Shown here: positions 1 through 18,883 of the stretch, one piece after another
How the letters are laid out: each line of letters opens with the position of its first letter
Numbering within the stretch: the first letter of the stretch is position 1
NCBI GenBank assembly: GCA_035549675.1
Contig: DASZQL010000159.1
Location: 1-34,357 of the forward strand
DNA length: 34,357 bases
From: Phycisphaerales bacterium
GTDB lineage: Bacteria; Planctomycetota; Phycisphaerae; Phycisphaerales; UBA1924
Reading direction: 5' to 3'
Position numbers and translations under genes: made by a program
Notes under the pieces: generated by a model
Seen by the model: only the letters and a program-made list of their open reading frames with translations
The model's database searches: none
Told to the model about the DNA's origin: nothing

Positions 1-1
1 C

Positions 2-469
2 ACCGCCGAACTCGGCTCGATGAACGTCACCGACCAGCTCGACGCGATGCGATCCATGGCCGCGGACCCGGTTCGCGTCCTTGTTGCGCCGCGCGTCGCC
101 GCCTGCATCGTCATGATCCCGATCCTGACCATCGCCTCGAACATCTGCGGCGTGCTCGGCGGCTGGCTCATCGGCGTTGGCGTCTACGACATCAACAACG
201 CCCGCTACTGGGAGTTCACCGCCTCCTTTGTCGAGTGGATCGACGTGACCGACGGCCTCATCAAGTCGATTTTCTTCGGCGCCGCCATCGGCCTCATCTC
301 GTGTTACAAGGGGTTTTTCTGCCGCCCCGGCGCCCAAGGCGTCGGCCGCGCGACGACGGAGGCCTTCGTGTCGAGCTTCGTCGCCATCATCGCGCTCAAC
401 CTCGTGCTCGCGAAGTTCCTGAATGACTGGCACCGCATGGGCGGCATGATCAGGGCGCTGGTGTCGTAA
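2..469 (+). CDS. mlaE: MlaE/YrbE-family ABC transporter permease, C-terminal part (5' end lies upstream of the window)
   Basis: The frame is open from nt 2 (TAELGSMNVTDQLDAMRSMAADPVRVLVAPRVAA...). This matches the conserved MlaE segment (AEiGsM.vteQiDAL..m..dP...Lv.PRv.A), followed by hydrophobic TM helices. GC3-rich codons. Confidence 0.8.
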   Translation, partial: TAELGSMNVTDQLDAMRSMAADPVRVLVAPRVAACIVMIPILTIASNICGVLGGWLIGVGVYDINNARYWEFTASFVEWIDVTDGLIKSIFFGAAIGLISCYKGFFCRPGAQGVGRATTEAFVSSFVAIIALNLVLAKFLNDWHRMGGMIRALVS

Positions 470-935
470 GCGCAGGGCACGTTCGTCTTCCCCATCCGCC
501 CCGGTCAACTGAGTATGATGTCTCGACGGGCACGGGGATGCCTTTGCGCGCGCCGGCGGTCAGTTCTGGCCGCATCGAAAAGCAAATCCGTAAAAATTTA
601 TGTCCTGTCCTTACAGTGAGTTGCAGCAAGCAAAGGCAACATTGATGGTCGCATTTGTGCGCACGCAAAATGGCCGCATAGGGAAAGAGTAGACGCAGCG
701 TATGGTGCGAAACGCACTGATAAGAAGACATCAGGACCACAGAAATATGGATTTTGCAACAAATGAACCACGATATTGTGTGATTTATTAAGAAATTGCC
801 GAGGCCACGTCACGGGCCATTGTGCTTTGTAAGCACGCAGACTAAATAGCCACCACCTAGTTAGAAGCAACACCGATCGTCGTGCGTCGATACGCTGCAC
901 GCGATTGACGCGAGCCCATAGAGAGGGACGACACG

Positions 936-3900
936 ATGAATTTCCAGACGGTCACGCGAAACCGCAGGAGCTGGAGCCAGCTGCTAATCGCCGGTCTCGC
1001 GGCACTGACGGCCTCGCACGCTCAGGCCCAACTCGTCGTGCCAATCGGGCACGATTTTGATGGCGACGATGTCGACGACCGCGTGGTCGGCTACCCCGCC
1101 GTTGGTTCGGAAGTTGCAACGGCCGGCCTCGTCCGCGTCTACGACGGCTTGACGCTCGAGCCCCGGCTCAACCTCCGAAGCGGCGAACCAGACGATGCCT
1201 TCGGTTTGTGCGTCGCCTCTGCCGGCGACCTTGACGGCGACGGTGCAAACGACATCATCGTCGGTGCTCCGCTGCACAGTCGGATCCACCTCTACGGCGG
1301 CGCGGTTTACATCTTTTCCGGCGCGACGGGCCAGCGGCTGGAACGAATCGAAGGCAATCCTTCGCAGATGATCGGCCGCGCCGTCGCCGGTGTGGGCGAT
1401 TTCACAGGAACGGGCGTGCCGTGCTACGCCATGTCCGGCAGTCAAGTCCTTCCGGACGGCTCACGCCGCGGCTTCGTTCAGATCCGAGTTCTGGGAACAC
1501 CCGAGCCGCGTGTCGTTTTCGAAGCCGACGAGTCAAACGATCTGTTCGGCGCATCGCTAGTGGGACTCGGTGATATCAACGCCGATGAGAAAGCGGACAT
1601 CGCCATCGCCGCTGAGTTAGCCACCAACTCGGGCGCGACCAGCGGCGGCATCTACATTTTCCACGGACTGGATTGCGTCTCAGGCTGTCCCGAAATCGTG
1701 CACACCGTCGACGCGGCGGCGTATTACGCCGCCGAGACCGACATGGACATCACCGCGTACGGCTGCTTCCTGCTCAATGGAACCGATGTGGATGAGGACG
1801 GCAAGCGTGAACTCCTCGTGGTGTCGCGAGGCATCGATTCCGAAGATCGCGCGGACTTCGTCCTCGACTCGATCTCTCTGGACGACGGACAGATCGTCGC
1901 GCAGGAGCGCTCGCTGTTTCTGATCGCCGACGGCGACGTGAACAAGGATGGAACTGTTGCGCCGAGCGACGCCTTCCTGGTCATCCAGAACATCAGCAGT
2001 AGTGAGTCCGTTCTCGATTGGTTCCACACCGATGTGAATAGCGACGGCACCGTGGATCTTGATGACGTTTACCGGGTCATCACAAGCTTCGACGAGGACT
2101 CGCCGCTGGTCGTCCGCGCGGGTTCAGCCGCCGCGGCAGGGGCGGTTGCCGCCGGCACATATCCCCCCGGAGGACTTCCGACATGTGTTGGATGGATTTG
2201 GATTGGGATACTTCCCAACCCGAATGAACCACAGAATCCAGAGGACGACTTTGTCATTCCAGAGTGTTGCATTCCGCAAGACAACACTTGGGAGACCCTC
2301 GACGATCTGCTGGGCGGGTGCGGCACACCCAGGGACCCCATCGAGCCGGAGCCGGATGACGGCATTGTCGATCCCGGGCCGCCGAATCAGGGCGGACCGA
2401 TCATGTCGGGCCCGAATCCAGACCCGGATTGTCCCACTCCCCCATGCCCGTGCCATTGTGTGCGATCGTGGCGGGGCAACTGCATTATCGTCGAGTGTGA
2501 CCACATCATCAGCTATCCCGGTAACCCACCCACTATTCGTCCCAAAGATCCAAGAACCCCAAGTCCGAACCCGCGCGGGCCGAGAGGGAACGAGTCTCGG
2601 GCGGACACCACCAATGATTCAAACGACTCCGTTTCCAACCCCGAGTTGGACCGTCACGGACCCGGTGAGTCCACTTGCAATCCGGTCCTTCTCTCCGACG
2701 GCATCAAAACCGAGCAAGATGAAGACTTGCGCGTCGCGCTTCCGGGCCGCGACTTTGTTCTGAAGCGCACGTACAGCGCCGGGTCCACGCAGGACGATCC
2801 GCGGTTCCCGAGCATGATCGGCCGCGGCTGGGGCACTTCCGCCGACGGGTGGGTTACCTTCGTCCCGACTCGAATGGATTGGGTCAGCATTGAGGCCGAC
2901 GAGTCCAACGCATTTGTTGACGCCTTGGAGGTTGTCGCGTTCCCGGTCGAAGGGAGCACGAAGCTGTTCGTAAGCGAAGACGACCCGAACCGCTTCGACA
3001 CGCTCGCCCCGAGCCTGACTCACGGTTGGCGAGCCGCTGCCCGCGTGCGCGGCGTTCTAGTTCCGGTCTGGCTCATCGAGACTTCCGGTCACGGACAGAC
3101 GGTGTACTACCGCACGTCCGCGCGTGAAAACGGAGAGGGCACACTCTCCGAAGAACTCCAATCGCTCGACGGTCGAATCCTGCAGGAACGCGACGAGTTC
3201 GGCAACGCGTTCACCTATCAGTACATGTCGCTCACCGATTCCGACGGCCACGCGGCGAGGCCGCGCCTCAAACGCCTGTTCCTCGGCGGCGAAACCGAAT
3301 CGACCTGCAAGGCCAAGATCGAGTTTGTGTGGGATCTCGGCACCGAGTCAGCCCCGGGTTCCGGGCGGCTGACCGAAGCCAAGGTGCTACGCCCACAGGG
3401 CAGTTCGTGGGTCACCATGCAGTCGGCACGCTACACCTACGTCGGAGACCTTGATTTCGGCGATCGAAGCGCGGTCGGGAACAATGTCAATCAACTCGCC
3501 GCGGTCCGCCAGCGCGTCCGGCTCGACGCCGGCGACGCGCCGGGAGAAGGGTCGTGGTACGCACGCGGATACCACTATCGGTACCACCACTCGATGAGCC
3601 ACGGACCCGCTCTGCTCACGCACGTCTTTGAGCCTGAGTCCATCGAGTATTTCGCCGAACATTGGGCCGCCATCTCCGCGGACTCGCAAGACGAATCCAT
3701 CGCGATGGCGATCAACAAGCTCATCGAGCATCACAATCTCAGCGAGGCCGTTGGCGGATCCGGAAGCCCCACGGTCAGCGAGCTCGCGAGCAAGGAGATC
3801 CAGTACTACTCGAGCGGCGATTCCGCGCCCGGCTACGACGAGGGCAGCCTCGAGGGCCTCGTCAGATCCGAAATTCTGCACCGTGGTTGTTCGTGTTCCG

Positions 3901-6900
3901 GCGGTCAATCTTCGAAGACAGAGTTCGAGTACGCGCAGCGAGCAATCCAGGACGTTGAGCGGGTGCACGAGTCGGCGGGCGGCACAGTGACGATGCACCC
4001 CATCAGAATGTCCAAACTGACAATCCGCCGTGATTCCGTGTGGCGCGATGGTCAATGGCAGGAGCACCAGATCGTTCGAAACTGGTCCGAGGATCGGCTC
4101 TTCGGCCTCGGCTGGGGCACCTTCGGCATCCCTGCCACCTTCGACCATCCCTTCTCAGTCACCGTCCACATCCTGCGGTGGGTGCCGGTTCCCTTTGTAG
4201 TCGCGAACGAGGTTGAAGATCCCGCCACCGATCGCGTGTGGCGGACGTACTTTGAGTTTGAGAACCATAATCCCGTTCGCAAGTTCAATGCGTCGGCGAT
4301 CGCATCGTTTGAGACGACCTCTGCCGGATTGCTCAACTACGCTGACACCAACGATGATCCTGGCGCAACCGCAGACCCGAAGGAGGCGGTGAACTTCAAC
4401 GAGGGCGGCGTGCTGGAACTCAGCCAGTTCGACGACTTCGGCCAGAAAACCGCCGAAGCTGTCGCGCGAATCAGCTCTATAGGGGAACCGCAAGACGAGA
4501 TCCTGCTCCGCGAACTGGAGTATCTGTCTGACAACGAGGGGGACCGCCCGGATCTGCTAATCAGAACGACCGAGTTCCGAACCGACGAGGTAAGTGGCCC
4601 ACGCGAAGTTCGCGAATACCAGTACCAGTTCGACCACACGTCCGGAATGCGCCGAAGCCAGGTCGCCCAATCGGCCTGCATTGAGCAGCGCGAGACGCAA
4701 CAGCAACATGGCCCGCCCGGATCGGGCGAGGTCGTCCGCGCGAGTGGCTTTACCGGCGCGGGCGATACCGCATGGACGAGGTCGGGTGATGGCTCGTTCA
4801 CCGTGATGACCTACGACACGCTCACGGGGGCGATGACCAGCACCGTGAGAAATGCTCCCATCACCGACGCGCTCCCGTCGCCGAGCTTTGGGATTGCCGC
4901 GTCCGGAGACCGGTCCGCCGATGGCGGACAACTGCTCACCGTGCGCGAAGTCGATCTTGCCGGCAGGCCCCGCAGCGTCACCGATGAAAGCGGCAATGAA
5001 ACGATCTTTGATTACATAACCGAACCGGTCTTCACGTACGCCACGCTGGGACAGGTTGCATCGACTCCGACCCTAACCGCAAGCAACCAGCACTACCTGC
5101 GCGTCACATCGACCCCGCCGACCGGTGTCGGCCCTGTGTCCAGGCAGTGGGCCAACGCCGGGTACCAAGTTCTCCGATCGAGCAGCTACGTTCCGGGGAG
5201 CGGCCTCGAGATCGGCAGAGTGATCTATCAGTACGACAGCCGAGGCCAGCACCGCGAAACACGGACGTGGCACGACATCGCCGGTGATCTGTCCAACCTC
5301 GAGCAGTACGAGTACGACGGCCTGGGCCGCCTGATCCGCACGATCTCCGCAACGGGCCATGTGGCCGAGACCGACTACGACAGCTTTGACCGCGTCATCG
5401 AAACGCGGCAGGGATCGGCCGTCGGCAGCATGCAACTGGTCGAACGCAACTTCTATGACCATACCGGAACGCTTGCATCACCGCACCAAGGCGTCGGAGA
5501 CGGACTTCTCACACTGACACAGCGGTTCGCAAGCGGCAGTGACATCCGCTCGACGGTCTCGATTTACGACTGGCGCGGCCGGAAGCGCCTCAGCTATCTG
5601 GCGGGCTCATCCGCCATCACCCCCGCGAAGGGTGCCTATGTCGCCGAGGTTCTTGACAACCTGGGACGACCGGTCGAACAAGCCACCGTCAGCGGCGAAC
5701 AAAGTCTTTCATCGCTTATTGGTTCCCTGCAAGACGATGAGCTCACGTCCTTTACCGAATTCCTCGCAACCCCGAATCACCCAGTGGAGCGCGTTCGCGC
5801 GCTGTCCTACGGACCCCGCGGCCTCGTCTTCGAGGACACCGATTCGTTCCGTAACGATGGCGGCGTGCTTTCACGCACAACACGGCATTGGCTCGACGAT
5901 GAAGGTCGCGAGCTTGTAGCAGTCGGTCCGGATGGCCCGGTCGTCAAGAAACAGTACGACGGCCTCGGTCGCGTCACGACGACCATCACCACCGACGGCG
6001 CCGCGGCAAGATCCACCTCCAGCCCGTCCTTCGCCGCCGTCACCGCGATGGAGCCCACGACCGAGGTCACCTTCGAGCGCACCAGTTCTCTGTTCGATGG
6101 CCGCGGCCTGCCGGTGCTCGACCGCGTGGAACAGCGACGCCACGATCTGACCGATTCGACCAAAGGCATCGGCGGGTCGCCGGTCAAGCAACTCGCCGCG
6201 ACCGTATACGACGGCGTCGCCAAGCCGATCGCGACTGTCCGTTATGGGAGCGGACTGCAATCCGGATCCGCATCGGATTCCTATGCATCCGGAGGCGGAA
6301 CCGACGCGGTGCCCCTGACCGCCGTACCCACCCGGGGCCCCGGCCGGATCATTACCGAAACACACTACGACGACGCCGGGCGCGCCACTGAGTCCGTGGA
6401 TCCCCGCGGCATAGTCAGTCGGATGATCTACGACGACGCCGGCCGGGCTGTCGCCACGATCGACAATGTTTCAGATCAGTCCGGCGGCGACCCCGTGAGC
6501 GTGACCCGCGACTCGGACGGTTTGTGGAGCGTCGTCAATCGTCCGACAAGCGAGCATCCGGAGCAAGATGATCGGAATCGCGTTGTCTCGATGGTCTATG
6601 ACGGCGATGGGAACATCACCCACCGTATCGCGCACAAGCCGGCAACAAGCGGCGATGAGCGGCAGGTCACCGAATATGTCTATCAATGCCCCGGCACAAC
6701 GAGTCTGGAGGGGGGGGGCGGCAGCGTGACGAACGGAGCGCTGTCCAACAAACTCCTTTACGAAGTCCGCTATCCCAACCCGGGAACCGGCCTGCCGAGC
6801 ATCACACCCGAGGATACCGTCCGCTACGCCTACAACCGTCTCGGCGAGAGGCTCGGCGCCTTGGATCAGAACGGGACGCTGATCAGGTACCAGCTCGACG

Positions 6901-9900
6901 AAGCGGGTCGGATTCTTTCAGAAACGGCGACGTGTTCATCACCGAGCATCGATGCCGAGTCGAACAGAATTGCGACCGCGTACGACAGGCTCGGCCGCGC
7001 TTCGACCATGTCCATGACCGACGATGGCATGAGCATCCACAGCCAGATGGCGATCGACTACGACGGTCTCGGTCGCATCACGCGCGTCCGGCAAAGCCCG
7101 TTCGGGTCCATCACTCATGTCGCGACCACAGCGGTGGATTATCAGTACGACGGAACGACCTCCGCCGGACAGTTGGTACACGATCGTCTCATTGAAATGG
7201 CTTACCCCGCGTGGTCGCCCGAATCGTACAGACCTGTCCAGACCATCGCCTATGGGAGCGAGGCATCTTCGTCCGATCGCATCTCGCGCATCACCGGCTT
7301 CTCATGGACCCGTGGCGGAGCTGTGGGCTCGACGGACATCATCGGCTCGGCTTCTCACGAATACCTCGGCCTCGCGCGGCGCGTGGTCTCAAAGTTCCAA
7401 AAAGCGACCGGTGGCATGCTGGTTCGAGACCGGTGGGTGGATGCGGACACCGGAGCCCACACCAGCGGCAGTTACGAGGGTCTCGACCAGTTCGGACGCG
7501 TTCGGCGCCAACTCTGGACGCTCGGTGAACCGATCAATCCCTCGGCCTCGGGTTCAAGGCCGCCGCTTGTCCGGCTCGACTACGCCTACGACGATGGCGG
7601 AAACACCCTGTCGCGACTGACCCGTCGCGCGGGTTCAAGCGGCGCCGCCACCCCTCTGCGCGATGAACTCAATACCTTCGACGGCCTGAATCGCTTGACG
7701 GAGAGCCATCGGGGCGAGGTAAGTCAGATCGGTCGTGGCAGTGAGCAGTGGGTGCTGGACCAACTCGGCAACTGGACAACGTGCAGGCGCGCCACACTTG
7801 TCGCGGGCGGTTCGTACAACCGTGTCGAAGGTCGCGAGTTCAACGCGACCAACGAGATCAAGAACACAGAAATCACGGGCACCGATGCGCCGTCGCAACG
7901 GCTGTTCGAGTACGACCACGCCGGCAACCTGGTCGGCCAACGGATCCTCGACGCGCTGGACGACGAGGGCGAGTTCGCCGCGCAGCGCTGGAAGCGGTTC
8001 ACGTACGACCCGTGGAACCGGCTGGTGAAGGTCGAGATCGAGCGGCGGGCCGGCGCCCTGGTCGAGGGGCCGCGGAAGACGGTCGCGGCGTACACCTATT
8101 ACGCCGGCAACCAGCGCGCGACAAAGACCTGGCGTGCGAACCGGTCCGCCGATTCGCTCTTCTTCTCGGATGATGATGACGGCGAATCGGACCCGCCCGG
8201 ATACGTCGATACTCCTGATCGCCGCTCGACCTATATCTATGATCGTGACTGGCACTTATTAGAAGAGCGAACCGAGGGGTACAACGCCGGGCAGCGGGGC
8301 GAGAACAGTCTCGCCTCGCCGTACGCCGGCCCGTGGGGTTGGGGACCCGGCGGCTCCTTCGCGGCTGCGCCGGACGAAGAAGCACTCCGCGTCAACCGCT
8401 ATCTCTGGGACCCCACGCAGTGGGATGAGTTCGTCCAGTTCCGATCGTTGCACGCGGAATCGTCGGGAAGCAGCCAGACAGTGGTTGAAGACGAGCGCCG
8501 CTGGGCGCTGACGGACCGCAACCACACCGTCATCGGTCTGGTCGACGACGCCGCGGTGACGGCCAGCGCGAGCTCGATCGTCCCTGAACAACTGCAGCGC
8601 AACCGCTACTCCCCCTACGGCCGCGCCGAGCGCGAGTGGGCCGCGGACGTCGACGGCGACGGCCGGATCAATATCACCGACCTGAACAAGATCGCCGACG
8701 CCACCGACATGACCCTCGCCGCGGATGGTTCCAGCGGCGAGTACATCCCGGGCGCCGACGTGGACTCCGACGGCACCATCGGCACGACGGACCTCTTCCA
8801 CGCCACCACGGTCCTGGCGCTGGGCACCGACCCCTTCGACCTCGACGACCCCCTCCACACGGATCCGATTGGCCCCGGCGGTGTACATGCTGTGGAGGAC
8901 GGCTCGCTCTGGCGCTCCTACTGCACCATTGGCTACAGCGGAAGCCTCTACGACCAGCACGCGCGCCTCTGGCTCATGCGCTCACGCTGGTACGACCCCG
9001 AGCTCGGCACTTGGCTCACGCGCGATCCGGCCGGCTATGTGGATGGCATGTGCCTCTACCGCTATGTGCGCGGGAATCCGTGCTTATACTTCGATCCATT
9101 TGGGCTGTTCTCATTTGGCGAGTATTGGTCTGACATCAAAGCCGGCGCGGCGGAGCTCGTTGCTCGCATTCCGAATGCGCTGACAGGTGCGGCAACGGGA
9201 GCCGCCACGGGCGCGGCTACGGGGGCAGCCGTTGGTGCAGGGGTAGGACTTGTCGCCGGTGCTGGCGTCGGCGCGGCACCCGGTGCAGTCGCGGGTGCCG
9301 CCGCTGGAGCGACCGGTGGAGCAATCGGCGGGTTCATCAGCGGGCTTATGGCCGATTCGAGCACGCCGGTCACCGAGGTGATGAAACAGGCTGCTATTGA
9401 CGGTGTTGCCGCAGGCATTACGGGAGGCGTTAGCGGCCCATTGCTCGGTGGGACAAGCGGAACTGCGGCTGCGATGACCACCACCGGAACCGTCGTCCCG
9501 GTTGCGGCGAGCACAGTTCAAGCCTCGGCACAAGCTGCTGCCGCGACCGCCGCAGCAGCCGGTATTATGGCCGCAAAGACGCAGGGACCAGCAACAAGCC
9601 AGACTACCCCAAGCACAACAGGAGAAGGAGCGAAGGGCGGTACGTACACGATGGTTGATCCCGAAACTGGCAATGTCGTTCGATCAGGGCGGACGAATGA
9701 TTTATCGCGACGGCAAAAAGAACTGGGACGCGACCCCAATACCAAACATTTGGAATTTAGAGAAGACATGAGAACAGACAATTACAACACACAGCGAGGT
9801 CGAGAGCAAAAACTACACGATTATTATAACCCACCTCTAAATAAGATTAATCCAATTAGCCCTATGAATCCCAACCGACAAAAATACATGGATGCAGCCC

Positions 9901-9920
9901 CCGATGTGTGCCCACGTTAA
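936..9920 (+). CDS. Giant secreted RHS/YD-repeat polymorphic toxin (signal peptide, FG-GAP repeats, dockerin-like pairs, YD shell, C-terminal nuclease-like toxin)
   Basis: Uninterrupted 8985-nt ORF with SD-like gagaggga 8 nt upstream. Sec-type signal MNFQTVTRNRRSWSQLLIAGLAALTASHAQA. Many YD repeats (YDGLGR, YDDAGRA, YDRLGRA, YDSFDRV, YDWRGR). Shell entry motif NPVLLSDGIKTEQDEDL. Canonical RHS core end RSRWYDPELGTWLTRDPAGYVDGMCLYRYVRGNPCLYFDPFGL. Confidence 0.95.
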   Translation: MNFQTVTRNRRSWSQLLIAGLAALTASHAQAQLVVPIGHDFDGDDVDDRVVGYPAVGSEVATAGLVRVYDGLTLEPRLNLRSGEPDDAFGLCVASAGDLDGDGANDIIVGAPLHSRIHLYGGAVYIFSGATGQRLERIEGNPSQMIGRAVAGVGDFTGTGVPCYAMSGSQVLPDGSRRGFVQIRVLGTPEPRVVFEADESNDLFGASLVGLGDINADEKADIAIAAELATNSGATSGGIYIFHGLDCVSGCPEIVHTVDAAAYYAAETDMDITAYGCFLLNGTDVDEDGKRELLVVSRGIDSEDRADFVLDSISLDDGQIVAQERSLFLIADGDVNKDGTVAPSDAFLVIQNISSSESVLDWFHTDVNSDGTVDLDDVYRVITSFDEDSPLVVRAGSAAAAGAVAAGTYPPGGLPTCVGWIWIGILPNPNEPQNPEDDFVIPECCIPQDNTWETLDDLLGGCGTPRDPIEPEPDDGIVDPGPPNQGGPIMSGPNPDPDCPTPPCPCHCVRSWRGNCIIVECDHIISYPGNPPTIRPKDPRTPSPNPRGPRGNESRADTTNDSNDSVSNPELDRHGPGESTCNPVLLSDGIKTEQDEDLRVALPGRDFVLKRTYSAGSTQDDPRFPSMIGRGWGTSADGWVTFVPTRMDWVSIEADESNAFVDALEVVAFPVEGSTKLFVSEDDPNRFDTLAPSLTHGWRAAARVRGVLVPVWLIETSGHGQTVYYRTSARENGEGTLSEELQSLDGRILQERDEFGNAFTYQYMSLTDSDGHAARPRLKRLFLGGETESTCKAKIEFVWDLGTESAPGSGRLTEAKVLRPQGSSWVTMQSARYTYVGDLDFGDRSAVGNNVNQLAAVRQRVRLDAGDAPGEGSWYARGYHYRYHHSMSHGPALLTHVFEPESIEYFAEHWAAISADSQDESIAMAINKLIEHHNLSEAVGGSGSPTVSELASKEIQYYSSGDSAPGYDEGSLEGLVRSEILHRGCSCSGGQSSKTEFEYAQRAIQDVERVHESAGGTVTMHPIRMSKLTIRRDSVWRDGQWQEHQIVRNWSEDRLFGLGWGTFGIPATFDHPFSVTVHILRWVPVPFVVANEVEDPATDRVWRTYFEFENHNPVRKFNASAIASFETTSAGLLNYADTNDDPGATADPKEAVNFNEGGVLELSQFDDFGQKTAEAVARISSIGEPQDEILLRELEYLSDNEGDRPDLLIRTTEFRTDEVSGPREVREYQYQFDHTSGMRRSQVAQSACIEQRETQQQHGPPGSGEVVRASGFTGAGDTAWTRSGDGSFTVMTYDTLTGAMTSTVRNAPITDALPSPSFGIAASGDRSADGGQLLTVREVDLAGRPRSVTDESGNETIFDYITEPVFTYATLGQVASTPTLTASNQHYLRVTSTPPTGVGPVSRQWANAGYQVLRSSSYVPGSGLEIGRVIYQYDSRGQHRETRTWHDIAGDLSNLEQYEYDGLGRLIRTISATGHVAETDYDSFDRVIETRQGSAVGSMQLVERNFYDHTGTLASPHQGVGDGLLTLTQRFASGSDIRSTVSIYDWRGRKRLSYLAGSSAITPAKGAYVAEVLDNLGRPVEQATVSGEQSLSSLIGSLQDDELTSFTEFLATPNHPVERVRALSYGPRGLVFEDTDSFRNDGGVLSRTTRHWLDDEGRELVAVGPDGPVVKKQYDGLGRVTTTITTDGAAARSTSSPSFAAVTAMEPTTEVTFERTSSLFDGRGLPVLDRVEQRRHDLTDSTKGIGGSPVKQLAATVYDGVAKPIATVRYGSGLQSGSASDSYASGGGTDAVPLTAVPTRGPGRIITETHYDDAGRATESVDPRGIVSRMIYDDAGRAVATIDNVSDQSGGDPVSVTRDSDGLWSVVNRPTSEHPEQDDRNRVVSMVYDGDGNITHRIAHKPATSGDERQVTEYVYQCPGTTSLEGGGGSVTNGALSNKLLYEVRYPNPGTGLPSITPEDTVRYAYNRLGERLGALDQNGTLIRYQLDEAGRILSETATCSSPSIDAESNRIATAYDRLGRASTMSMTDDGMSIHSQMAIDYDGLGRITRVRQSPFGSITHVATTAVDYQYDGTTSAGQLVHDRLIEMAYPAWSPESYRPVQTIAYGSEASSSDRISRITGFSWTRGGAVGSTDIIGSASHEYLGLARRVVSKFQKATGGMLVRDRWVDADTGAHTSGSYEGLDQFGRVRRQLWTLGEPINPSASGSRPPLVRLDYAYDDGGNTLSRLTRRAGSSGAATPLRDELNTFDGLNRLTESHRGEVSQIGRGSEQWVLDQLGNWTTCRRATLVAGGSYNRVEGREFNATNEIKNTEITGTDAPSQRLFEYDHAGNLVGQRILDALDDEGEFAAQRWKRFTYDPWNRLVKVEIERRAGALVEGPRKTVAAYTYYAGNQRATKTWRANRSADSLFFSDDDDGESDPPGYVDTPDRRSTYIYDRDWHLLEERTEGYNAGQRGENSLASPYAGPWGWGPGGSFAAAPDEEALRVNRYLWDPTQWDEFVQFRSLHAESSGSSQTVVEDERRWALTDRNHTVIGLVDDAAVTASASSIVPEQLQRNRYSPYGRAEREWAADVDGDGRINITDLNKIADATDMTLAADGSSGEYIPGADVDSDGTIGTTDLFHATTVLALGTDPFDLDDPLHTDPIGPGGVHAVEDGSLWRSYCTIGYSGSLYDQHARLWLMRSRWYDPELGTWLTRDPAGYVDGMCLYRYVRGNPCLYFDPFGLFSFGEYWSDIKAGAAELVARIPNALTGAATGAATGAATGAAVGAGVGLVAGAGVGAAPGAVAGAAAGATGGAIGGFISGLMADSSTPVTEVMKQAAIDGVAAGITGGVSGPLLGGTSGTAAAMTTTGTVVPVAASTVQASAQAAAATAAAAGIMAAKTQGPATSQTTPSTTGEGAKGGTYTMVDPETGNVVRSGRTNDLSRRQKELGRDPNTKHLEFREDMRTDNYNTQRGREQKLHDYYNPPLNKINPISPMNPNRQKYMDAAPDVCPR
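1047..1835 (+). other. FG-GAP / integrin-alpha-like beta-propeller repeat region of the RHS protein
   Basis: Repeated Ca-binding-like DxDxDG motifs followed by hydrophobic strands: FDGDDVDDRVVGYP, AGDLDGDGANDIIVGAP...GGAVYIFSG, GVGDFTGTGVPCYAMSG, LGDINADEKADIAIAAE...GGIYIFHG, GTDVDEDGKRELLVVSRG. Confidence 0.7.
1926..2090 (+). other. Dockerin/EF-hand-like repeat pair 1
   Basis: DGDVNKDGTVAPSDAFLVIQNI ... TDVNSDGTVDLDDVYRVITSF. These are two DxNxDGxV Ca-loop plus helix units, as in type I dockerins. Confidence 0.6.
8646..8825 (+). other. Dockerin/EF-hand-like repeat pair 2, inserted inside the C-terminal RHS core region
   Basis: DVDGDGRINITDLNKIADAT ... GADVDSDGTIGTTDLFHATTVLALG. It lies between the YSPYGRAE motif and the GYSGSLYD...RWYDP...DPFGL core terminus. 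Confidence 0.6.
8931..9107 (+). other. RHS-associated core terminus with predicted autoproteolysis motif (DPFGL)
   Basis: GYSGSLYDQHARLWLMRSRWYDPELGTWLTRDPAGYVDGMCLYRYVRGNPCLYFDPFGL matches the GY.G...D...GL...R.R.YDP..GRF...DP.G......LY.Y...NP....DP.GL consensus. The Leu codon ends at 9107. Confidence 0.85.
9177..9575 (+). other. Gly/Ala-rich glycine-zipper-like segment of the toxin C-terminal region
   Basis: TGAATGAATGAATGAAVGAGVGLVAGAGVGAAPGAVAGAAAGATGGAIGGFISGLM ... GGVSGPLLGGTSGTAAAM ... AAATAAAAGIMAA. GxxxG/AxxxA periodicity. GC-rich like the host genome. Confidence 0.5.
9636..9917 (+). other. Putative GIY-YIG (URI-fold) nuclease toxin domain
   Basis: GGTYTMVDPETGNVVRSGRTNDLSRRQKELG ... 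RGREQKLHDYYNPPLNKINP. GTY-x11-RSG fits GIY-x(9-11)-YIG with the second Tyr replaced. G.T..L..R supplies the conserved Arg. E..L....Y.P.LN supplies the catalytic Glu and Asn. The DNA here is visibly AT-richer than the rest of the gene. Confidence 0.6.
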
Positions 9921-10395
9921 TAAGTTAGACACAGCTGGATTGGCACCGGAGGGATCGGTCGTCACTGTGCCACTACGAGATCGTGGGTATGGCGTTGGCG
10001 TGATTGCGAGAAATAGCGGCGACGGAATTTTATTAGTTTATTTCTTCGGCATTCGGCTCGACGCCAACGACCTACCAATTGATTGGTCGACGATCAAACC
10101 TAGCGCCGCAATTTGGGTTCGACTTGTCGGAGATTTGGGCTTGCTGAATAACGCTTGGAATGTAATTGGCACAGTAAATCCATGGAGTCGTCTCGAATGG
10201 CCCATGCCTCCACTAGCAAGGTATGTTGATGGCATTGGATATTATAAATCATTTTATGATGATAATACTCTCGATAAAATTCGGGAAGTTCGTATTACTG
10301 AGACAGAAGCAAAGCAATTTTGGGAAGACGGCATGAGCGGTTATGTGGCGGCCGAAATAGCGCTGACCAAGCGACTCAGCAGACTAGCTCCATAA
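9892..10395 (+). CDS. Putative cognate immunity protein for the RHS C-terminal toxin
   Basis: 167-aa ORF (alternative ATG at 9904). It overlaps the RHS stop codon (9918-9920) and shares the reduced GC of the toxin tip. Lying immediately 3' of a polymorphic toxin is the canonical immunity position. I recognise no family. Confidence 0.6.
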   Translation: MQPPMCAHVNKLDTAGLAPEGSVVTVPLRDRGYGVGVIARNSGDGILLVYFFGIRLDANDLPIDWSTIKPSAAIWVRLVGDLGLLNNAWNVIGTVNPWSRLEWPMPPLARYVDGIGYYKSFYDDNTLDKIREVRITETEAKQFWEDGMSGYVAAEIALTKRLSRLAP

Positions 10396-10473
10396 ACAAG
10401 TAATCTCCTTCGTCCTTTATCTTGCTAAGGGCATTGGCATGTGGGATAGAAGCCCTCCATACCGTAGCTGGTT

Positions 10474-10643
10474 GCATCGAAGTTTTCCATGCCGTGCCAT
10501 CGAAGTCGATCGGAACCTTCGACGATTGGGCAAAGCCGATGGCGAAGAAACACCCTGTGCGCGGACCGACGTTGACGGCGCGGTTCACACTCGATGAGAG
10601 AACGGTAGACATCGAAGTCGGCGGAACCGACTTCGATGGCACG
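10474..10643. repeat. REP-like palindromic repeat cluster A (degenerate hairpin 10493-10530 plus perfect hairpin 10610-10638)
   Basis: CATCGAAGTCGG-CGGAA-CCGACTTCGATG has a 12-bp perfect stem. It abuts the RAYT stop codon (10644-10646). An upstream 27-nt block CCGACGTTGACGGCGCGGTTCAC(A/C)CTCGA is also present in cluster C with one variable position. Confidence 0.85.
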
Positions 10644-11202
10644 TCACACGAATCCCTTCCACTTGTCCCACGAACCCGGCTTTCCCGGCGGCGGGTCGCA
10701 CTCCAGCTCGCTTTCGCGGCGTCCCATCCACCAGCGAACGCTCGACCACTTCCAGTCTTCGGGCCGCTCCACCAGGCCACGTTCGACGGGGTTGCGGTGG
10801 ATGTACCGGACCTCGCGGCAGAACTCGCTCAGGTCGCGGACGTTGCGGTCGAAGCCGCCGCCCTTCTGCCAGAAACGAGGGCGGCCGGTCGCGTCCTTCA
10901 GCCGGTTCAAGATCGGCGAACTGTCTCGGCACCACCGCCCGAGCGCGCGCTGGGTGATCGACATCTTGATCGACCAGAGCACACGCTTCATCGTCACCCG
11001 TTCATCGGGCCGGCAGAGCAGGTGCACATGCTCGGGCATGATGACCCAGGCAAAGAATCTCGAGGTTGAACTTGCGGCGAGCGTGTGCGAACCGGGCTAC
11101 GAGCGCATCGGCGATCCGCGGGTTGGTGGTGAGGAGGGGCAGTCGCTTCTGACAGGAGAAGGTGATGAACCGAACGCCGCCCGGGATCTCGTACCGGCGC
11201 AT
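10644..11202 (-). pseudogene. REP-associated tyrosine transposase (RAYT, IS200-like Y1/HUH transposase) with a 1-nt frameshift
   Basis: C-terminal frame: MPEHVHLL (HUH motif) ... YIHRNPVERGLVERPEDWKWSS (catalytic Tyr motif). N-terminal part, in another frame: MRRYEIPGGVRFITFSCQKRLPLL...ARRKFNLEI. The two frames join at about 11052-11057. Removing one T from CTTTG restores FNLEILAWVIMPEHVHLL. The span is 559 nt = 3n+1. Flanked by REP hairpins on both sides. Confidence 0.8.
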
Positions 11203-11334
11203 GCGTTTCCGAATGGGCTCCCCGGGGGTCACGCGGGTACGATATCGGTCGGGCGATGGATAGGAGACGTGTCGAACGGGCGTGCCATGGACAACCACCT
11301 CGGGACTTGGACGGGTGCGACTGAGGACGAAGAA

Positions 11335-11410
11335 CATCGAAGTCGCCGAGCCGACTTCGATGGCACGATTGACACCGTGACCGCCGAGGAACATCGATGC
11401 CACCCGCCCG
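11335..11410. repeat. REP-like repeat B (hairpin 11335-11362 plus conserved right flank)
   Basis: CATCGAAGTCG-CCGAGC-CGACTTCGATG followed by GCACGATTGACACCGTGACCGCCGAGGAACATCGATGCCACCCGCCCG. That flank is nearly identical to 12545-12592 (3 mismatches by eye). Confidence 0.8.
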
Positions 11411-11449
11411 TACGACTCTGTATGGAATGTGATACCGGCGGCTGCACAC

Positions 11450-11471
11450 CCGCCGAGTTTCAACTCGGCGG
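11450..11471. repeat. Perfect 10-bp inverted repeat upstream of the RAYT pseudogene
   Basis: CCGCCGAGTT-TC-AACTCGGCGG. No T-run follows on either strand, so it is not an obvious intrinsic terminator. Confidence 0.5.
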
Positions 11472-11606: not shown

Positions 11607-11900
11607 ATGAACAATACGAACGAGCTGTTTTTTGCCGACGCATTCGGCGCCGAACGAGATTTCTTCCAGGCCAAGTGGCACGGGAAAACTGTGCATATGG
11701 AACCCACGCGACGGGGCTCGCCGTTCGTTTGGATTGCTGTCGTGGTGCTGCCGTGGCTCCTCGCAGAGGGCGTTCTTTGGGTTCTTCGATATGTGACGGT
11801 GCACCACCCTGCTCAGGCTGGGGGAATTAACTACGGCATGATGGCACCTGTCCTGCGAGTATCTGCGGCCTGCTTAATGGCATTTTGTCTTTATCTCTAA
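11607..11900 (+). CDS. Small predicted two-TM membrane protein (orphan cassette 2)
   Basis: ATG at 11607 (the track ORF starts at TTG 11592). Two hydrophobic helices: SPFVWIAVVVLPWLLAEGVLWVL and MMAPVLRVSAACLMAFCLYL. AT-rich upstream region. No family recognised. Confidence 0.45.
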   Translation: MNNTNELFFADAFGAERDFFQAKWHGKTVHMEPTRRGSPFVWIAVVVLPWLLAEGVLWVLRYVTVHHPAQAGGINYGMMAPVLRVSAACLMAFCLYL

Positions 11901-12337: not shown

Positions 12338-12592
12338 GTATCGAAGTCCTCCATTTCGTTCCATCACAGTCCGGCGGGTGGCATCGCATTCCGGCATCGT
12401 GCCATCGAGTTCCGCTGGGGACTTCGATGGTTGGGCGGAGCCGAGGGCAAAGAAGCATTGAGTGCGCGGGGCCGACGTTGACGGCGCGGTTCACCCTCGA
12501 CGGGAACGAGGGAGACATCGAAGTCGGCGGAACCGACTTCGATGGCACGATTGACACCGTGATCGCCGAGGAGCACCGATGCCACCCGCCCG
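12338..12592. repeat. REP-like palindromic repeat cluster C (degenerate hairpin 12398-12435, perfect hairpin 12516-12544, right flank to 12592)
   Basis: The 29-nt hairpin CATCGAAGTCGGCGGAACCGACTTCGATG is identical to copy A. It shares the left block with A and the right flank with B. It fills the intergenic gap between 12314 and 12614. Confidence 0.85.
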
Positions 12593-12613: not shown

Positions 12614-13057
12614 ATGAACGACGCATGGTCGTGGAAGCTTTCCGATCAGGGGTATTCCGTTCGAATCGACTGCGACAGCCGAGTGTCCTATGCGTACTTA
12701 CTAAAAGGCACAGCATTTGTTGGTGACGTGTGGCTAACCAACACAGATTATGATCCGGACGAGATCCCTTGGGATACAAGCCATCAGGAGATGCCGTTTC
12801 GCAATCCTAAAGAATACACTATCTCTCACGAACCATTGATTGATCCAAATCCAGATGACTTTGTATTTTATTCTTGGCATGACAAAGGTTCCTTACGTGT
12901 GGCCATTTTGTACCTCGGACAACCGCTCGCCATTTTGGGCGACGGCATCAAGCCTGGTTGGTGTGTGTTTGCAAAAAAACGAGGGCCATTGGCTCAGCCA
13001 CTTCTTATCGATGTTCGGCGCAATAACCAAGACAGACCGCCCGACACAACGAGCTAA
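12614..13057 (+). CDS. Hypothetical cytoplasmic protein, candidate orphan immunity protein (cassette 3)
   Basis: ATG preceded by aagggga (SD) at good spacing. Clearly AT-richer codons than the genome. 147 aa, Trp/Asp-rich, no TM segment. No family recognised. Confidence 0.65.
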   Translation: MNDAWSWKLSDQGYSVRIDCDSRVSYAYLLKGTAFVGDVWLTNTDYDPDEIPWDTSHQEMPFRNPKEYTISHEPLIDPNPDDFVFYSWHDKGSLRVAILYLGQPLAILGDGIKPGWCVFAKKRGPLAQPLLIDVRRNNQDRPPDTTS

Positions 13058-13115: not shown

Positions 13116-13230
13116 GGCCCGGCTCGTGGGCCGGAAGGGATTCGTGTGACGTGCCCGAGCGGACCTCGATGGCACGATGTGTGCAGGGAACGCTCGACCA
13201 CTTCCAGTCTTCGGGCCGCTCCACCAGGCC
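13116..13230. mobile_element. Scrambled RAYT/REP relic
   Basis: 13116-13149 resembles the reverse complement of the RAYT 3' end (GGAAGGGATTCGTGTGA, i.e. ...KGFV-stop on the + strand). 13150-13176 is a degenerate REP hairpin (CGTGCC CGAG ... CTCG AT GGCACG). 13188-13230 is an exact 43-nt copy of RAYT-internal 10736-10778 (codes GLVERPEDWKWSSV on the minus strand). Confidence 0.75.
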
Positions 13231-13332
13231 GCGCGTTGACTCTGACCGCCTCATCGGAACACCCGGCCTTCTTTCCATGCCATGATGGGAGTTTCCGTTT
13301 CGTTCGAACTCTGGCTGTACCGATGAAGTGAG

Positions 13333-15312: not shown

Positions 15313-17019
15313 TCACTGCGGCTGGTGCGGCAGCCCGGATAATCGGCCGCCCTGGCGGGGCGAAGGCATGTCCGCCCGAGCTTCAGCCGCGCCGTTTCGA
15401 GACACCGACGCGCTGCCGCTCCCGGCCCATTCGAATCGGGGCGAGAGGCCGACGTACCGACGGAATAAGCCGCTCTTTCGTTCGGCGCCCCAGATATCGA
15501 CGGCCGGATTGTCCTTCGCGCCGACGGAAAGGACGACTTCCTCGTCGCGCACGCTGACGGTGACGCCGGCGACGTTCTGCGTGTGCGTGCGGTCGAGTCC
15601 GTCGGCGATCCGCAGGATGCCCGAGAGCTTGCGCACGAGGCGCCGGTCTCGCTTCGGCAGCTTGGCGAACGTCGGGTGATCGAGAGTGGGTTCGGCGCGG
15701 CGGTGGTACCTCGCGATGTTGGCGATCAACTCGAGCTCGCGGTGGCTGAACCCGGCGATGTCGCTGTGCACGATGAGGTGATAGCTGTGCTTATGGTGGC
15801 GCGAGTAGTTGATGAGATAACCGACGTCATGAAGGATCCCCGCCGCGAGGAGCAGGTCGCGCGCGGAGCGATCGTTGCATCCTTCCAGCGATTCCGACGA
15901 CTGCTCGACGATCTGGTCGAACAGTTGCATCGCCAGGTCGGCCACATGGTTCGAGTGGGCTTCCTCGTACCGGCAGGCCGTCGCGAAATGCTTGAGCGCC
16001 CGCCAGCGGTCCACCATACCCGGCGTCGCGCCGCTGCCGTTGGGCATGCGCTCGGCGATCATGGTCAGCAGCAACCCGTCGCGGATACCGCGGTCATGAA
16101 CCTTGAGGGTGTTCACTTTGAGGCGCCTCATCGCGCGCTCGACGATGGCGAGGCCCGGCACGATGATCTCGGCCCGGTCGGCGCTGAGACCGGGCACCCG
16201 GAGCCGCTGGCGCACGGGCATCTGGTCGAGCCAGTCGAGAATGTGCCGGACTTCGGAGCGCTGGATCTCGTAGCCGCGGGGCGTGAACGGGAGCATGTCG
16301 GGACCCGTGCCGGTCGCGCCGCGGTGCATCGAGATCGCCGCGAGGGTGGTGAAGGTGCCGCCGGTCCCGATCAGGTACTGCGGCGAGAACGCCGGCTGGC
16401 GGATCCACTCTTTCATCGTCTTTTTGATCGCCCGGTCCATGTCCTCGAGCGCGCCGACGTCGCCCGTCGTGCAACCCGGGAACCGCTCCGCGACGCGGAC
16501 CGCGCCGAGGGGCACGGTGAAGACCTGCTCGACGACGCCGCCGGAGGCGAGGACGATCTCCGTGCTCCCGCCGCCGACATCCGCGATCGCGACGTTCGCA
16601 TCATGCAGGTCGAACGAGTGTGCCACGCTGAGGAAGGCGAGCCGCGCTTCGTCCTCCGCCGAGATCGGCTCGATCGGGATCCCGGCCCGCTCCTGCACGA
16701 GACCCAGAAACTCATCGCGGTTCTTCGCCTCGCGCACGGCGGCGGTGCCGATGGCGCGGATGACGTCCGCGCCGTACCCCTCCGCGATCCCGCGCATCCG
16801 TTCCACCGCCGAGGAGGCCTTCTCCATCGCCTCGGGGCTCAGGCGTCCGCTGGCATCGAGCCCCTGCCCGAGCCGGGTGATTTCCTTCTCGTCATCGAGA
16901 ATGCGATAGCTGCCGTCCGCGGCGACCTCCGCGACGATCAGGCGGATACTGTTGGTGCCGACGTCGATCGCGGCGAGGCGCATGAACTCTCCATCGGCCG
17001 GATGTGTTCTGGAGTTCAC
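15313..17019 (-). CDS. ppx: Ppx/GppA-family exopolyphosphatase / pppGpp phosphohydrolase with C-terminal HD domain
   Basis: ASKHA-fold motifs AAIDVGTNSIRL, DVGGGSTE, IGTGGTFTT. HD region ILHDVGYLINYSRHHKHSYHLI. GTG 17019 overlaps the CHAD stop (GTGA). Alternative ATG at 16983 (MRLAAIDVG). Confidence 0.9.
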   Translation of the reverse strand: MNSRTHPADGEFMRLAAIDVGTNSIRLIVAEVAADGSYRILDDEKEITRLGQGLDASGRLSPEAMEKASSAVERMRGIAEGYGADVIRAIGTAAVREAKNRDEFLGLVQERAGIPIEPISAEDEARLAFLSVAHSFDLHDANVAIADVGGGSTEIVLASGGVVEQVFTVPLGAVRVAERFPGCTTGDVGALEDMDRAIKKTMKEWIRQPAFSPQYLIGTGGTFTTLAAISMHRGATGTGPDMLPFTPRGYEIQRSEVRHILDWLDQMPVRQRLRVPGLSADRAEIIVPGLAIVERAMRRLKVNTLKVHDRGIRDGLLLTMIAERMPNGSGATPGMVDRWRALKHFATACRYEEAHSNHVADLAMQLFDQIVEQSSESLEGCNDRSARDLLLAAGILHDVGYLINYSRHHKHSYHLIVHSDIAGFSHRELELIANIARYHRRAEPTLDHPTFAKLPKRDRRLVRKLSGILRIADGLDRTHTQNVAGVTVSVRDEEVVLSVGAKDNPAVDIWGAERKSGLFRRYVGLSPRFEWAGSGSASVSRNGAAEARADMPSPRQGGRLSGLPHQPQ

Positions 17020-18104: not shown

Positions 18105-18883
18105 GGGCGCGCTCCCGTCATGTTTCCCACCACAGAAAGCACGCCATCCGATAGCGATTTGAACACGGTGCGAACATCGCCGTCGGCGTCCACCACCGAG
18201 AACTTGTACCGCTCGGAGAGGTCGTCGAAGACCGCGAGCAGCCGCGTCTGGTAGCGGACGAACGACTGGTAGACGTCGTGCTCCTCCTGGAAGTCCATCC
18301 CGGACTCCCAGTAGTCGAACCCACCCGCGGCCATGACGCGCTGGGTGAGCTTGGGGAGGCTGATCTTGAGATAAAAGACCGCGTCGGGACGGGGCGCGAA
18401 GCGATAGACATCGCGGATCCACTCGGGGTCACCGCCGCGGACGATGGAGCGCGCCATCATGGAATAGACGTAACGATCGGCGAGCACGACGAAGCCGGCC
18501 CGGAGCGCCGGGATGATCTCGTTTTCAAGCCTGTCGGCGAAGTCAGTGGCGTAATAGAGGTCCATGGTGAGGCGGCCGAGGGTGTGGCCCTCCTTCGCCT
18601 GCCTGAGTCCCTCGCCGGCCAACTGGCTGCGGGTGAGGGCGGTGTGGGCGACGCCGAAGCCGCGCGTCTCGAGCCACTCGCGCAGGAGCGCAAGCTGGGT
18701 GGACCGGCCCGCGCCGTCGGTCCCCTCGACCGCGATCAGTCGGCCGGGCAGCGACGAGATGTCCGCCGCATCGCCGCCGTTGATCTGGATGTCGGCATCC
18801 GCGCCGCCGCGACGAAAACCCGCCTCGGAGCGGTAACCGCTCGAGTTCGAGTGCGCTTCGACCGCGGCCTTGAAACTGGGCAT
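18101..18883 (-). CDS. Thymidylate-kinase-like P-loop protein, paralogue B (Walker A Lys replaced by Arg)
   Basis: VEGTDGAGRST (Arg codon at 18704-18706) where paralogue A has GIDGSGKST. Otherwise colinear with A (ATDFADRLE, LRAGFVVLADRYVYSMMARS). ~45-aa N-terminal extension. Confidence 0.75.
   Translation of the reverse strand: MPSFKAAVEAHSNSSGYRSEAGFRRGGADADIQINGGDAADISSLPGRLIAVEGTDGAGRSTQLALLREWLETRGFGVAHTALTRSQLAGEGLRQAKEGHTLGRLTMDLYYATDFADRLENEIIPALRAGFVVLADRYVYSMMARSIVRGGDPEWIRDVYRFAPRPDAVFYLKISLPKLTQRVMAAGGFDYWESGMDFQEEHDVYQSFVRYQTRLLAVFDDLSERYKFSVVDADGDVRTVFKSLSDGVLSVVGNMTGARP

Follow-up and report, generated by a model that had tools for sequence, protein, structure and literature searches.

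Related systems and the locus

The general template of polymorphic toxins includes pre-toxin domains, which separate the site of release from the toxin itself; nuclease tips of the GIY-YIG or URI type are routinely reported on Rhs proteins. Here, we describe a locus of this kind on contig DASZQL010000159.1 of a Phycisphaerales bacterium (GCA_035549675.1), the whole analyzed stretch of 34,357 nucleotides (nt) being termed the window. The C-terminal region of its 2994-amino-acid (aa) Rhs protein resolves into three modules: the core up to a DPFGL motif, a glycine-zipper segment with a spacer, and a URI nuclease tip that comes with an overlapping Imm26 immunity gene. An earlier note on this stretch, made from the letters alone and called the original prediction below, had recognized the nuclease and immunity pair and had placed the junction with the host sequence well downstream of DPFGL.

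The nuclease end of the locus has its closest described counterpart in Tox-URI1, which has the published signature 'Y, YxG, R, [RK]xxE, N', with Imm26, HINT and RHS among its listed partners and with Imm14, Imm26, Imm44 and Imm51 as its immunity partners; in the same catalogue, Tox-URI2 carries KxG at the YIG position (Zhang et al., 2012; PMC3482391). As in Tox-URI1/Imm26 loci, the window has a C-terminal URI nuclease on an RHS protein with Imm26 immediately downstream, and the statement of the original prediction that URI tips are known from polymorphic toxin systems agrees with this catalogue, in which Tox-URI1 with Imm26 on Rhs proteins was recorded in 2012 (PMC3482391). The subfamily found in the window matches the signature at Y7, R29, R57xxE60 and N81 (numbered along the tip domain), and has RxG in place of YxG, which recalls the KxG of Tox-URI2. 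In addition, the window copy has Leu33, where His is usual, and no Pfam model scores above threshold on the tip. In fold, the tip is like the N-terminal domain of UvrC (1yd6, 1ycz) and I-TevI (1ln0), with template-modelling (TM) scores of 0.53-0.57 over about 80 residues, Glu60 and Asn81 being assigned relative to UvrC by their order in the motif set. Unlike UvrC and I-TevI, to which it is 14-21% identical, it has Arg in place of the second Tyr of the motif and is the tip of a secreted toxin rather than a repair or homing enzyme.

The segment ahead of the nuclease finds two parallels among type VI secretion system (T6SS) effectors and Rhs toxins. First, in the Agrobacterium T6SS DNase Tde1, a glycine zipper is required for membrane permeabilisation and DNase entry (PMC10240207). 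The window likewise has a GxxxG run N-terminal to a nuclease domain, a likeness of motif. Tde1 is small, loaded by an adaptor and armed with an Ntox15 nuclease; in contrast, the zipper of the window is part of an Rhs C-terminal region, forms a longer module of two helices and is followed by a URI nuclease. Second, the membrane-inserting C-terminal domain of Pseudomonas aeruginosa Tse5 (RhsP1), compared here by its description, is an Rhs C-terminal fragment freed at a DPxGL-(18)-DPxGL motif (PMC9637101), as is predicted for the window protein. Tse5-CT is the whole toxin and is paired with the membrane immunity protein Tsi5, whereas the module of the window bears an extra nuclease domain and a soluble immunity gene.

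A further parallel is organizational. The C-terminal region of the window protein would, like that of CdiA, fall into a delivery and a catalytic part. In CdiA-CT, the delivery part comes first and recombines independently of the catalytic part at the C-terminus, and the entry domains use specific inner-membrane receptor proteins. The locus of the window differs from CdiA-CT in its secretion system and in its unrelated sequences, and its glycine zipper would act on the lipid bilayer.

Two borders divide the Rhs C-terminal region

The toxin gene (936-9920, forward strand) is the largest open reading frame (ORF) in the window. Its product matches RHS_repeat (E = 1.2e-19), Dockerin_1 (E = 8.5e-08) and FG-GAP (E = 3.3e-06) in Pfam, and Rhs_assc_core (E = 9.6e-16) and YD_repeat_2x (E = 7.3e-15) in NCBIfam, the Rhs_assc_core match stopping at aa 2724, the Leu of DPFGL. 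The end of the core (9024-9107) carries DPAGY at 9024-9038 and, after 18 codons, DPFGL at 9093-9107, a candidate DPxGL-(18)-DPxGL aspartyl autoprotease motif in the sense defined for such toxins (PMC9637101), with a predicted cut after Leu2724. The protein thereby has the hallmarks of the Rhs/YD-repeat polymorphic toxins, namely RHS repeats, the Rhs-associated core, the DPxGL-(18)-DPxGL motif ahead of a variable C-terminus and, though masked in total GC content, a break of composition and homology at DPxGL. Its N-terminus, MNFQTVTRNRRSWSQLLIAGLAALTASHAQAQ, looks like a Sec signal peptide, as read by eye and not by a prediction tool; neither a PAAR nor a VgrG domain was detected in the Rhs protein, and no T6SS genes were found in the window.

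Scanned in 200-nt intervals along the stretch, total GC stays at 0.60-0.70 as far as about 9600, drops to 0.41-0.52 at 9600-10500 and is at least 0.61 beyond. This bears out the AT-rich stretch that had been seen to begin at about 9580, the string quoted for it lying at 9780-9832. The segment 9621-10395 has a GC content of 0.470 against a mean of 0.644 for the whole window, about four standard deviations below the mean (0.043, the spread of 775-nt intervals); only six of 1344 intervals are lower, all of them overlapping it, and it is the lowest-GC stretch of the whole 34 kb.

The sequence between DPFGL and this low-GC stretch had been taken as host-like. However, total GC in 9108-9626 stays high because Gly (GGN) and Ala (GCN) codons fix the first two codon positions, with GC1 at 0.69-0.73 and GC2 at 0.69-0.70; if this segment chose its codons as the tip and immunity gene do, its total GC would still be about 0.62. 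GC at third codon positions (GC3) is 0.75 over the whole core and 0.88 over its last 200 codons, as opposed to 0.56 in the zipper and spacer (9108-9626), 0.40 in the tip and 0.39 in the immunity gene. It drops at DPFGL from 0.80-0.88 to 0.56-0.60 and again near 9500-9620 to 0.40. With the amino acids of 9108-9626 held fixed, the codon usage of the core predicts a GC3 of 0.77 against the 0.56 observed (z = -6.4), and that of the last 300 core codons predicts 0.84 (z = -10.2). The deficit is seen both in the zipper (9108-9452; 0.60 against 0.76 expected from core usage) and in 9366-9626 (0.52 against 0.77), and the share of GGC among Gly codons is 56% in the core and 28% in 9108-9626. The other genes in the window range in GC3 from 0.64 to 0.92, so that this segment lies below every host gene measured. 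Selection against repeats was considered as a sufficient cause of the low GC3 of the zipper and rejected, the non-repetitive spacer stretch 9366-9626 being equally low.

A likelihood change-point analysis of GC3, combined with a permutation test, places the strongest break at 9075-9093 (support 8982-9111; gain of 63 log-likelihood units) and a second near 9513 (support 9486-10153; gain 7.7; permutation p = 0.003). In its codon usage, the segment 9108-9626 also differs from the tip and immunity gene (z = +2.7), and, tested in turn on the usage of this segment, the tip deviates with z = -3.4 and the immunity gene with z = -4.7. Both cassettes after DPFGL are foreign in composition with respect to the core (GC3 of 0.75-0.88 in the core as opposed to 0.56 in the zipper and spacer and 0.40 in the tip and immunity gene).

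Comparison with a second locus locates the borders more sharply. The contig JAMTDX010000029.1 (1-4569, 4.6 kb; GCA_023806625.1), from a metagenome-assembled genome (MAG) labelled Accumulibacter sp., strings together three Rhs C-terminal modules that have URI-type tips, Imm26 genes and linkers of three different kinds. In blastn comparisons, positions 8965-9107 of the window match all three core ends of this contig at 77-82% identity, each match ending at 9106/9107, and positions 9621-10379 match one of its tips with the Imm26 gene at 66.8% over 765 nt; 9108-9620 has no match on this contig. The three modules also diverge among themselves straight after DPFG. Since the homology stops at 9107, restarts at 9621 and is absent between, the region has one sharp border at 9107/9108 and another at about 9620/9621, and what lies between them is a module with a history of its own. 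DPFGL is the main junction because GC3, the codon test and the homology all break there, and the border at about 9620 is additional to it; the apparent drop of GC only at about 9600 arises because the Gly and Ala codons keep the GC of the zipper segment high.

These results bear on the view, put forward in the original prediction, that the Gly/Ala-rich segment is resident and inherited with the rhs core, only the nuclease and immunity gene having been exchanged at about 9580-9620. It draws on the total GC of 0.60-0.70 until about 9600, on the genuine border at 9621, about 45 nt from the junction that had been placed near 9577-9580, and on the occurrence, set out below, of the tip behind many different upstream regions and of the zipper ahead of many different tails. 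However, total GC in this segment is set by its Gly and Ala codons; its GC3 falls far short of the expectation from the core (z = -6.4 to -10.2) and of all host genes, the strongest change-point is at DPFGL, and all three core ends of the Accumulibacter-labelled contig lose homology there and differ mutually thereafter. We hence consider a resident zipper segment quite improbable. Of the claim that only the nuclease and its immunity gene are exchanged, the border at 9621 stands, and the conclusion that DPFGL is no border is wrong; the plot of GC and codon usage that had been proposed as a check gives a break near 9513 and the main one at DPFGL, and the host-like character of the sequence past DPFGL is not supported.

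Alternatively, zipper, spacer, tip and immunity gene might have arrived as one cassette in the classical manner, with the difference in GC3 between linker and tip being local noise of codons or amino acids. The dominance of the change-point at DPFGL (63 versus 7.7 log-likelihood units), the closer approach of the linker to the usage of tip and immunity gene (z = 2.7) than to that of the core (z = -6.4), and the similar GC3 throughout the sequence after DPFG in the Accumulibacter-labelled contig (0.74-0.77) would agree with this. Against it stand the significance of the second GC3 step, the deviation of tip and immunity gene from the codon usage of the linker, and the fact that the Accumulibacter-labelled contig shares the tip and immunity gene and not the linker, from which it follows that at least one exchange inside the C-terminal region separates the two loci. 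Together with the census of domain combinations given below, this makes arrival in a single piece unlikely, and we favor a mosaic of two cassettes.

A soil metagenome is the sole public run to contain the sequence, and rhs core ends are repeated sequences; a chimeric assembly could thus have fused different rhs alleles at conserved sequence and left artefactual junctions. We regard this as exceedingly improbable: one independent Logan contig from that run covers 8592-10636 with no differences and at an even depth (6.9, with flanks at 8.0 and 7.8), thereby spanning both borders, and the translated reading frame is unbroken across both. The region 8592-10636 is, for these reasons, no assembly chimera.

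Close alleles of the locus did not emerge from our scans. A scan of genome contigs with the core end and linker gave no relative, and a scan of metagenomes with the core end gave relatives at 47-58% identity only, none of them with the zipper or the tip; the nearest relative is the Accumulibacter-labelled contig with its 77-82% nucleotide identity.

Some side observations concern these Rhs genes. Dockerin- or EF-hand-like calcium-binding repeats, DVDGDGRINITDLNK and DVDSDGTIGTTDLFH, lie within the last part of the core (8640-8800), just ahead of the autoprotease motif, and a second such pair is found near the N-terminus (1930-2080; aa 333-382). The orphan modules of the Accumulibacter-labelled contig have Gly-rich stretches in place of the core-end repeats. 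The second of their tips has a classical GIIY...YIG motif and, as partner, a 350-aa protein with only a weak match to Imm26. The tip and immunity gene in that contig have a host-like GC3 (0.75-0.77), unlike the copy in the window (0.40).

A GIY-YIG (URI) nuclease tip

The last module of the toxin (9621-9920) contains a tip domain of 97 aa at 9627-9917, followed by the stop codon at 9918-9920. Its translation holds the string GTY-x11-RSG-RT-NDL-SRR ... REQKLHDYYNPPLNKIN, on which the assignment to GIY-YIG had originally been based. Against Pfam, the last 97-114 residues give sub-threshold matches to MUG113 (E = 0.009-0.014) and T5orf172 (E = 0.05-0.08) and none to GIY-YIG (PF01541). When the tip is scanned along with four close homologues, MUG113 is matched by all five sequences, T5orf172 by four and GIY-YIG by one, the best matches of the homologues being to T5orf172 (E = 1.1e-5) and GIY-YIG (E = 0.083). 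We take these three families to belong to the same GIY-YIG clan.

Structure and conservation are more telling. An AlphaFold2 model built from an alignment of 70 sequences has a predicted local distance difference test (pLDDT) value of 95.1 and a beta-beta-alpha-beta-alpha topology (strands 5-10, 17-23 and 43-49; helices 26-35 and 53-67). In a Foldseek search of the PDB, all 15 top matches are GIY-YIG nucleases, including the N-terminal domain of UvrC (probability 1.00, TM 0.57), I-TevI and the 5hmC-specific PD-T4-3. When the profile of the tip is aligned to UvrC, Y7 corresponds to the GIY Tyr, G21 to the YIG Gly and R29 to the catalytic Arg, the profile search of the PDB itself retrieving UvrC at E = 1.3 only. 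All 70 tips share G21, R22, R29, R57, G58 and N81, while 69 have Y7, 69 have E60 and 67 have R19; the tip of the window holds Y7, R19-x-G21-R22, R29, R57-G58-x-E60 and N81. The modelled fold and the conserved residues, rather than Pfam, place the last 97 aa in the GIY-YIG/URI superfamily, in agreement with the original prediction, and on the same grounds the tip is predicted to be a metal-dependent nuclease. Matches of the single sequence to designed Kelch-like repeat proteins in the PDB were discarded as uninformative, since they covered only a short Pro-rich stretch.

An exhaustive profile search with the tip (E <= 0.001) gave 974 cluster representatives, 150 of which were listed. Among these 150, which range from 90 to 2271 aa, the domain nearly always ends the protein or stops a few residues short of the C-terminus, and it begins sharply at [AP][KR]GG[TV]Y, after HINT domains, Rhs DPxG ends or other regions. 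The suggestion that the nuclease is itself a mobile unit is in this respect borne out, for the tip occurs behind many different upstream regions both in these representatives and in 48 genomic loci. As a side observation, positions 2280-3046 of a 3.8-kb contig in a MAG labelled Candidatus Methanofastidiosia archaeon encode the same tip at 59% identity and, after it, an ORF of the size typical of these loci, which may reflect a binning error or a transfer across domains.

The Imm26 immunity gene

The ORF overlapping the Rhs stop codon is present as originally described, with 167 aa when counted from the upstream ATG at 9892 (9892-10395, forward strand). The real start is probably the ATG at 9904 (MCAHVNK; 163 aa, 9904-10395), since the homologue in the Accumulibacter-labelled contig, with which it shares 64% aa identity, starts with MCARISK; from this start the gene overlaps the Rhs ORF by 17 nt. 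The product matches Pfam Imm26 (PF15428) with E = 5e-11 and 43.3 bits (cut-off 23.3) over profile positions 2-102 of 107. The same arrangement recurs in the 48 genomic loci with the tip, which come from Myxococcota, Planctomycetota, Acidobacteriota, Bacteroidota, Chloroflexota, Proteobacteria and others: nearly all have an ORF of about 150-180 aa that starts between -8 and +13 nt from the toxin stop codon. Of the 47 ORFs scanned directly after the tip (46 from other genomes and the one in the window), 44 are Imm26. The family assignment and this gene association agree with the earlier proposal of an immunity gene and predict a protective role for the protein. Exact-sequence look-ups of the Imm26 protein and of a permease from the window found no recorded match.

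A double glycine-zipper module between core and nuclease

The segment following DPFGL (9108-9452) has the pattern W..N..(GxxxG)n, GVGAxPG, (GxxxG)n and then DP..GAIxG. The core of its profile maps to 9162-9434 (hidden Markov model match with E = 8.4e-31). Aligned with eight metagenomic homologues, it shows a mean column identity of 54% and 25 invariant columns, and the run GAATGAATGAATGAAVGAGVGLVAGAGVGAAPGAVAGAAAGATGGAIGGFISG has an invariant Gly or Ala at each fourth residue in all nine sequences. Nothing in Pfam scores above threshold on this segment, the nearest being DUF6861 (E = 0.008; 16 versus 28 bits) and Gly-zipper_OmpA (E = 0.022; 15 versus 27 bits); a search for literature on DUF6861 found nothing useful. 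Conversely, the zipper profile weakly retrieves proteins annotated with PF13441 and PF13488, among many low-complexity candidates, possibly through composition alone. As there is no above-threshold profile match, we do not file the module in the curated Gly-zipper families; by its pattern, it would resemble glycine zippers in action. It is joined to the nuclease by a low-complexity spacer rich in Ala, Thr and Pro (9453-9620), which, as mentioned, shares the low GC3 and is without a counterpart in the Accumulibacter-labelled contig.

In other proteins the zipper lives apart from the nuclease. It stands directly after the Rhs DPxG end in at least 12 metagenomic proteins and is followed by at least seven unrelated tails, and it is found upstream of the URI tip in none of the 150 listed tip representatives and none of the 48 genome loci. 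This separate occurrence implies that the combination in the window is a chimera of two separately circulating parts, which also counts against the arrival of the entire region after DPFGL as one cassette. One of the zipper proteins, P0005, which carries the module with a short HGAHH-containing tail, comes from a long array of orphan Rhs C-terminal fragments (TEN_YD-shell pieces; 1-9092 of a contig in GCA_046128195.1), each followed by small ORFs, beside a DDE transposase.

The module probably inserts in the target membrane, by analogy with the systems introduced above, either as a carrier of the nuclease or as a pore. In the latter case it would itself be a second toxin, a membrane-depolarising pore former like Tse5-CT, instead of or besides a carrier. 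Two relatives, P0014 and P0016, have a Gly-rich tail and no enzymatic one, and directly downstream lie genes for small membrane proteins, one with two transmembrane segments (L002, 4507-4842) and one with a single segment (L003, 1696-1935). Their gene order resembles the Tse5 arrangement and would fit a toxin that acts on membranes and has an immunity partner in the membrane, such as the Tse5/Tsi5 pair (PMC9637101, PMC12744356); membranes are depolarised by Tse5-CT and by the glycine-zipper toxins of the EsxX kind (PMC9637101, PMC12744356). In the window, too, a patch of lower GC holds a small ORF (11607-11900, forward strand; about 97 aa) for which two transmembrane segments are predicted and which could encode the membrane-bound immunity partner of a glycine-zipper toxin. 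However, the gene adjoining the toxin of the window is the soluble Imm26, with no membrane protein beside it; the ORF at 11607-11900 lies 1.2 kb past Imm26, beyond a transposase pseudogene, and has no similarity to the membrane protein of L002. Moreover, the ORF after P0005, in which the zipper does have a tail, shows one weak transmembrane-like segment at the most. For the protein of the window we therefore hold a toxic role of the zipper in its own right to be possible, if somewhat doubtful; the roles of carrier and pore toxin are not mutually exclusive.

A probable mosaic of two cassettes and its proposed action

We regard it as probable that the locus encodes a Sec-type (non-PAAR) Rhs polymorphic toxin, the post-cleavage region of which is a mosaic of two cassettes with separate histories, the zipper carrying the nuclease and Imm26 protecting the producer. 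From the domain identities, the borders and the gene association, which were read directly, we infer the following course of action. With its signature of a signal-peptide-like N-terminus and neither a PAAR domain nor T6SS genes in the window, the Rhs protein would be exported by Sec. Autoproteolysis after Leu2724 would then free a C-terminal fragment of 270 aa. Its glycine zipper would enter the cytoplasmic membrane of the target and pass the attached nuclease through, on the analogy of Tde1 (PMC10240207). In the target cytoplasm the URI domain (9627-9917) would cut nucleic acid, as its fold and residues suggest. The overlapping Imm26, probably translationally coupled to the toxin, would shield the producer, as suggested by its family and its association with the tip.

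Several of the results pull against this interpretation. As regards the borders, the second GC3 step is far weaker than the first and its position is loosely fixed (9486-10153), and the Accumulibacter-labelled contig, only 67-82% identical, does not show which module moved, or when. As regards the nuclease, the tip remains below every Pfam gathering score (17.0 versus 22.3 bits for MUG113 and 14.5 versus 20 for T5orf172), the Foldseek E-values are modest (0.016), and the YIG Tyr position is Arg19 in this subfamily (67 of 70 tips), a departure from the classical motif, though the KxG of the accepted Tox-URI2 clade shows that such substitutions do occur in the superfamily. Further, Leu33 (9723-9725; aa 2930 of the Rhs protein) occupies a position where 65 of the 70 tips, and the closest relative on the Accumulibacter-labelled contig, have His and four have Leu; it aligns with Tyr43 of UvrC, for which a literature search found no Y43F phenotype, and may leave the nuclease weakened or altered. 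As regards the zipper, the AlphaFold2 model, all-helical with helices at 3-49, 56-81 and 88-108, is of low confidence (pLDDT 64), and the membrane-protein neighbors of its tail-less relatives suggest that it can be the toxin itself rather than a carrier.

Downstream surroundings

The 3' end of the low-GC cassette is marked, about 100 nt past the immunity gene, by a block of repetitive extragenic palindrome (REP)-like repeats (10493-10645; palindrome CATCGAAGTCGGCGGAACCGACTTCGATG; families D1-D6, I1 and I2 in the repeat search). The Logan contigs break at this block, and the depth rises there. Further REP-like copies are found at 11323-11410, 12398-12592 and 13148-13233, and such repeats border the low-GC patches downstream. 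Amid them lies a frameshifted gene for an IS200-like/RAYT tyrosine transposase (10644-11463, reverse strand), which when read through matches Pfam Y1_Tnp with E = 2.7e-6; a 50-nt stretch of it (10732-10781) recurs at 13184-13233 with 96% identity. A 26-nt inverted repeat (12395-12420 and 13154-13179; 92% complementary) encloses an ORF of 147 aa (12614-13057, forward strand; GC 0.49, GC3 0.50) that has no match in Pfam or NCBIfam; this ORF may represent an orphan immunity gene or, alternatively, cargo carried between REP elements. A few kilobases downstream, adjacent genes for a Ppx/GppA phosphatase and a CHAD-domain protein (15313-18422, reverse strand), linked to polyphosphate metabolism, are unrelated to the toxin and offer a hint of lifestyle.

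Implications

This locus adds no new kind of nuclease and immunity pair, since Rhs proteins bearing URI nucleases were catalogued together with Imm26 in 2012. One lesson is of method: total GC is blind to the borders of horizontal transfer in Gly/Ala-rich coding sequence, and with GC3 or a codon test matched for amino acids the apparent junction moves upstream by 500 nt, to the canonical DPxGL site. With this correction, the locus becomes a clean example of an Rhs C-terminal region made from two independently circulating cassettes.

The remaining interest lies in the zipper, a conserved, uncatalogued module for which the data point to recombination independent of both core and tip. We tentatively entertain, as a possibility of somewhat less than even weight, that the double glycine zipper of about 95-115 aa after DPxGL represents an uncatalogued family of portable pre-toxins, pore-forming and paired with a membrane immunity protein when alone with a Gly-rich tail, and otherwise a general device for taking fused Rhs cargo across membranes to the cytoplasm, with a second, internal border of recombination. 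If such a family exists, the internal border at 9620/9621 would be analogous to the split between entry domain and toxin domain in CdiA-CT. If, further, it is true that the zipper carries its cargo over the inner membrane of the target, this would help explain how the nuclease tips of Rhs proteins enter the cytoplasm without a known receptor pathway.

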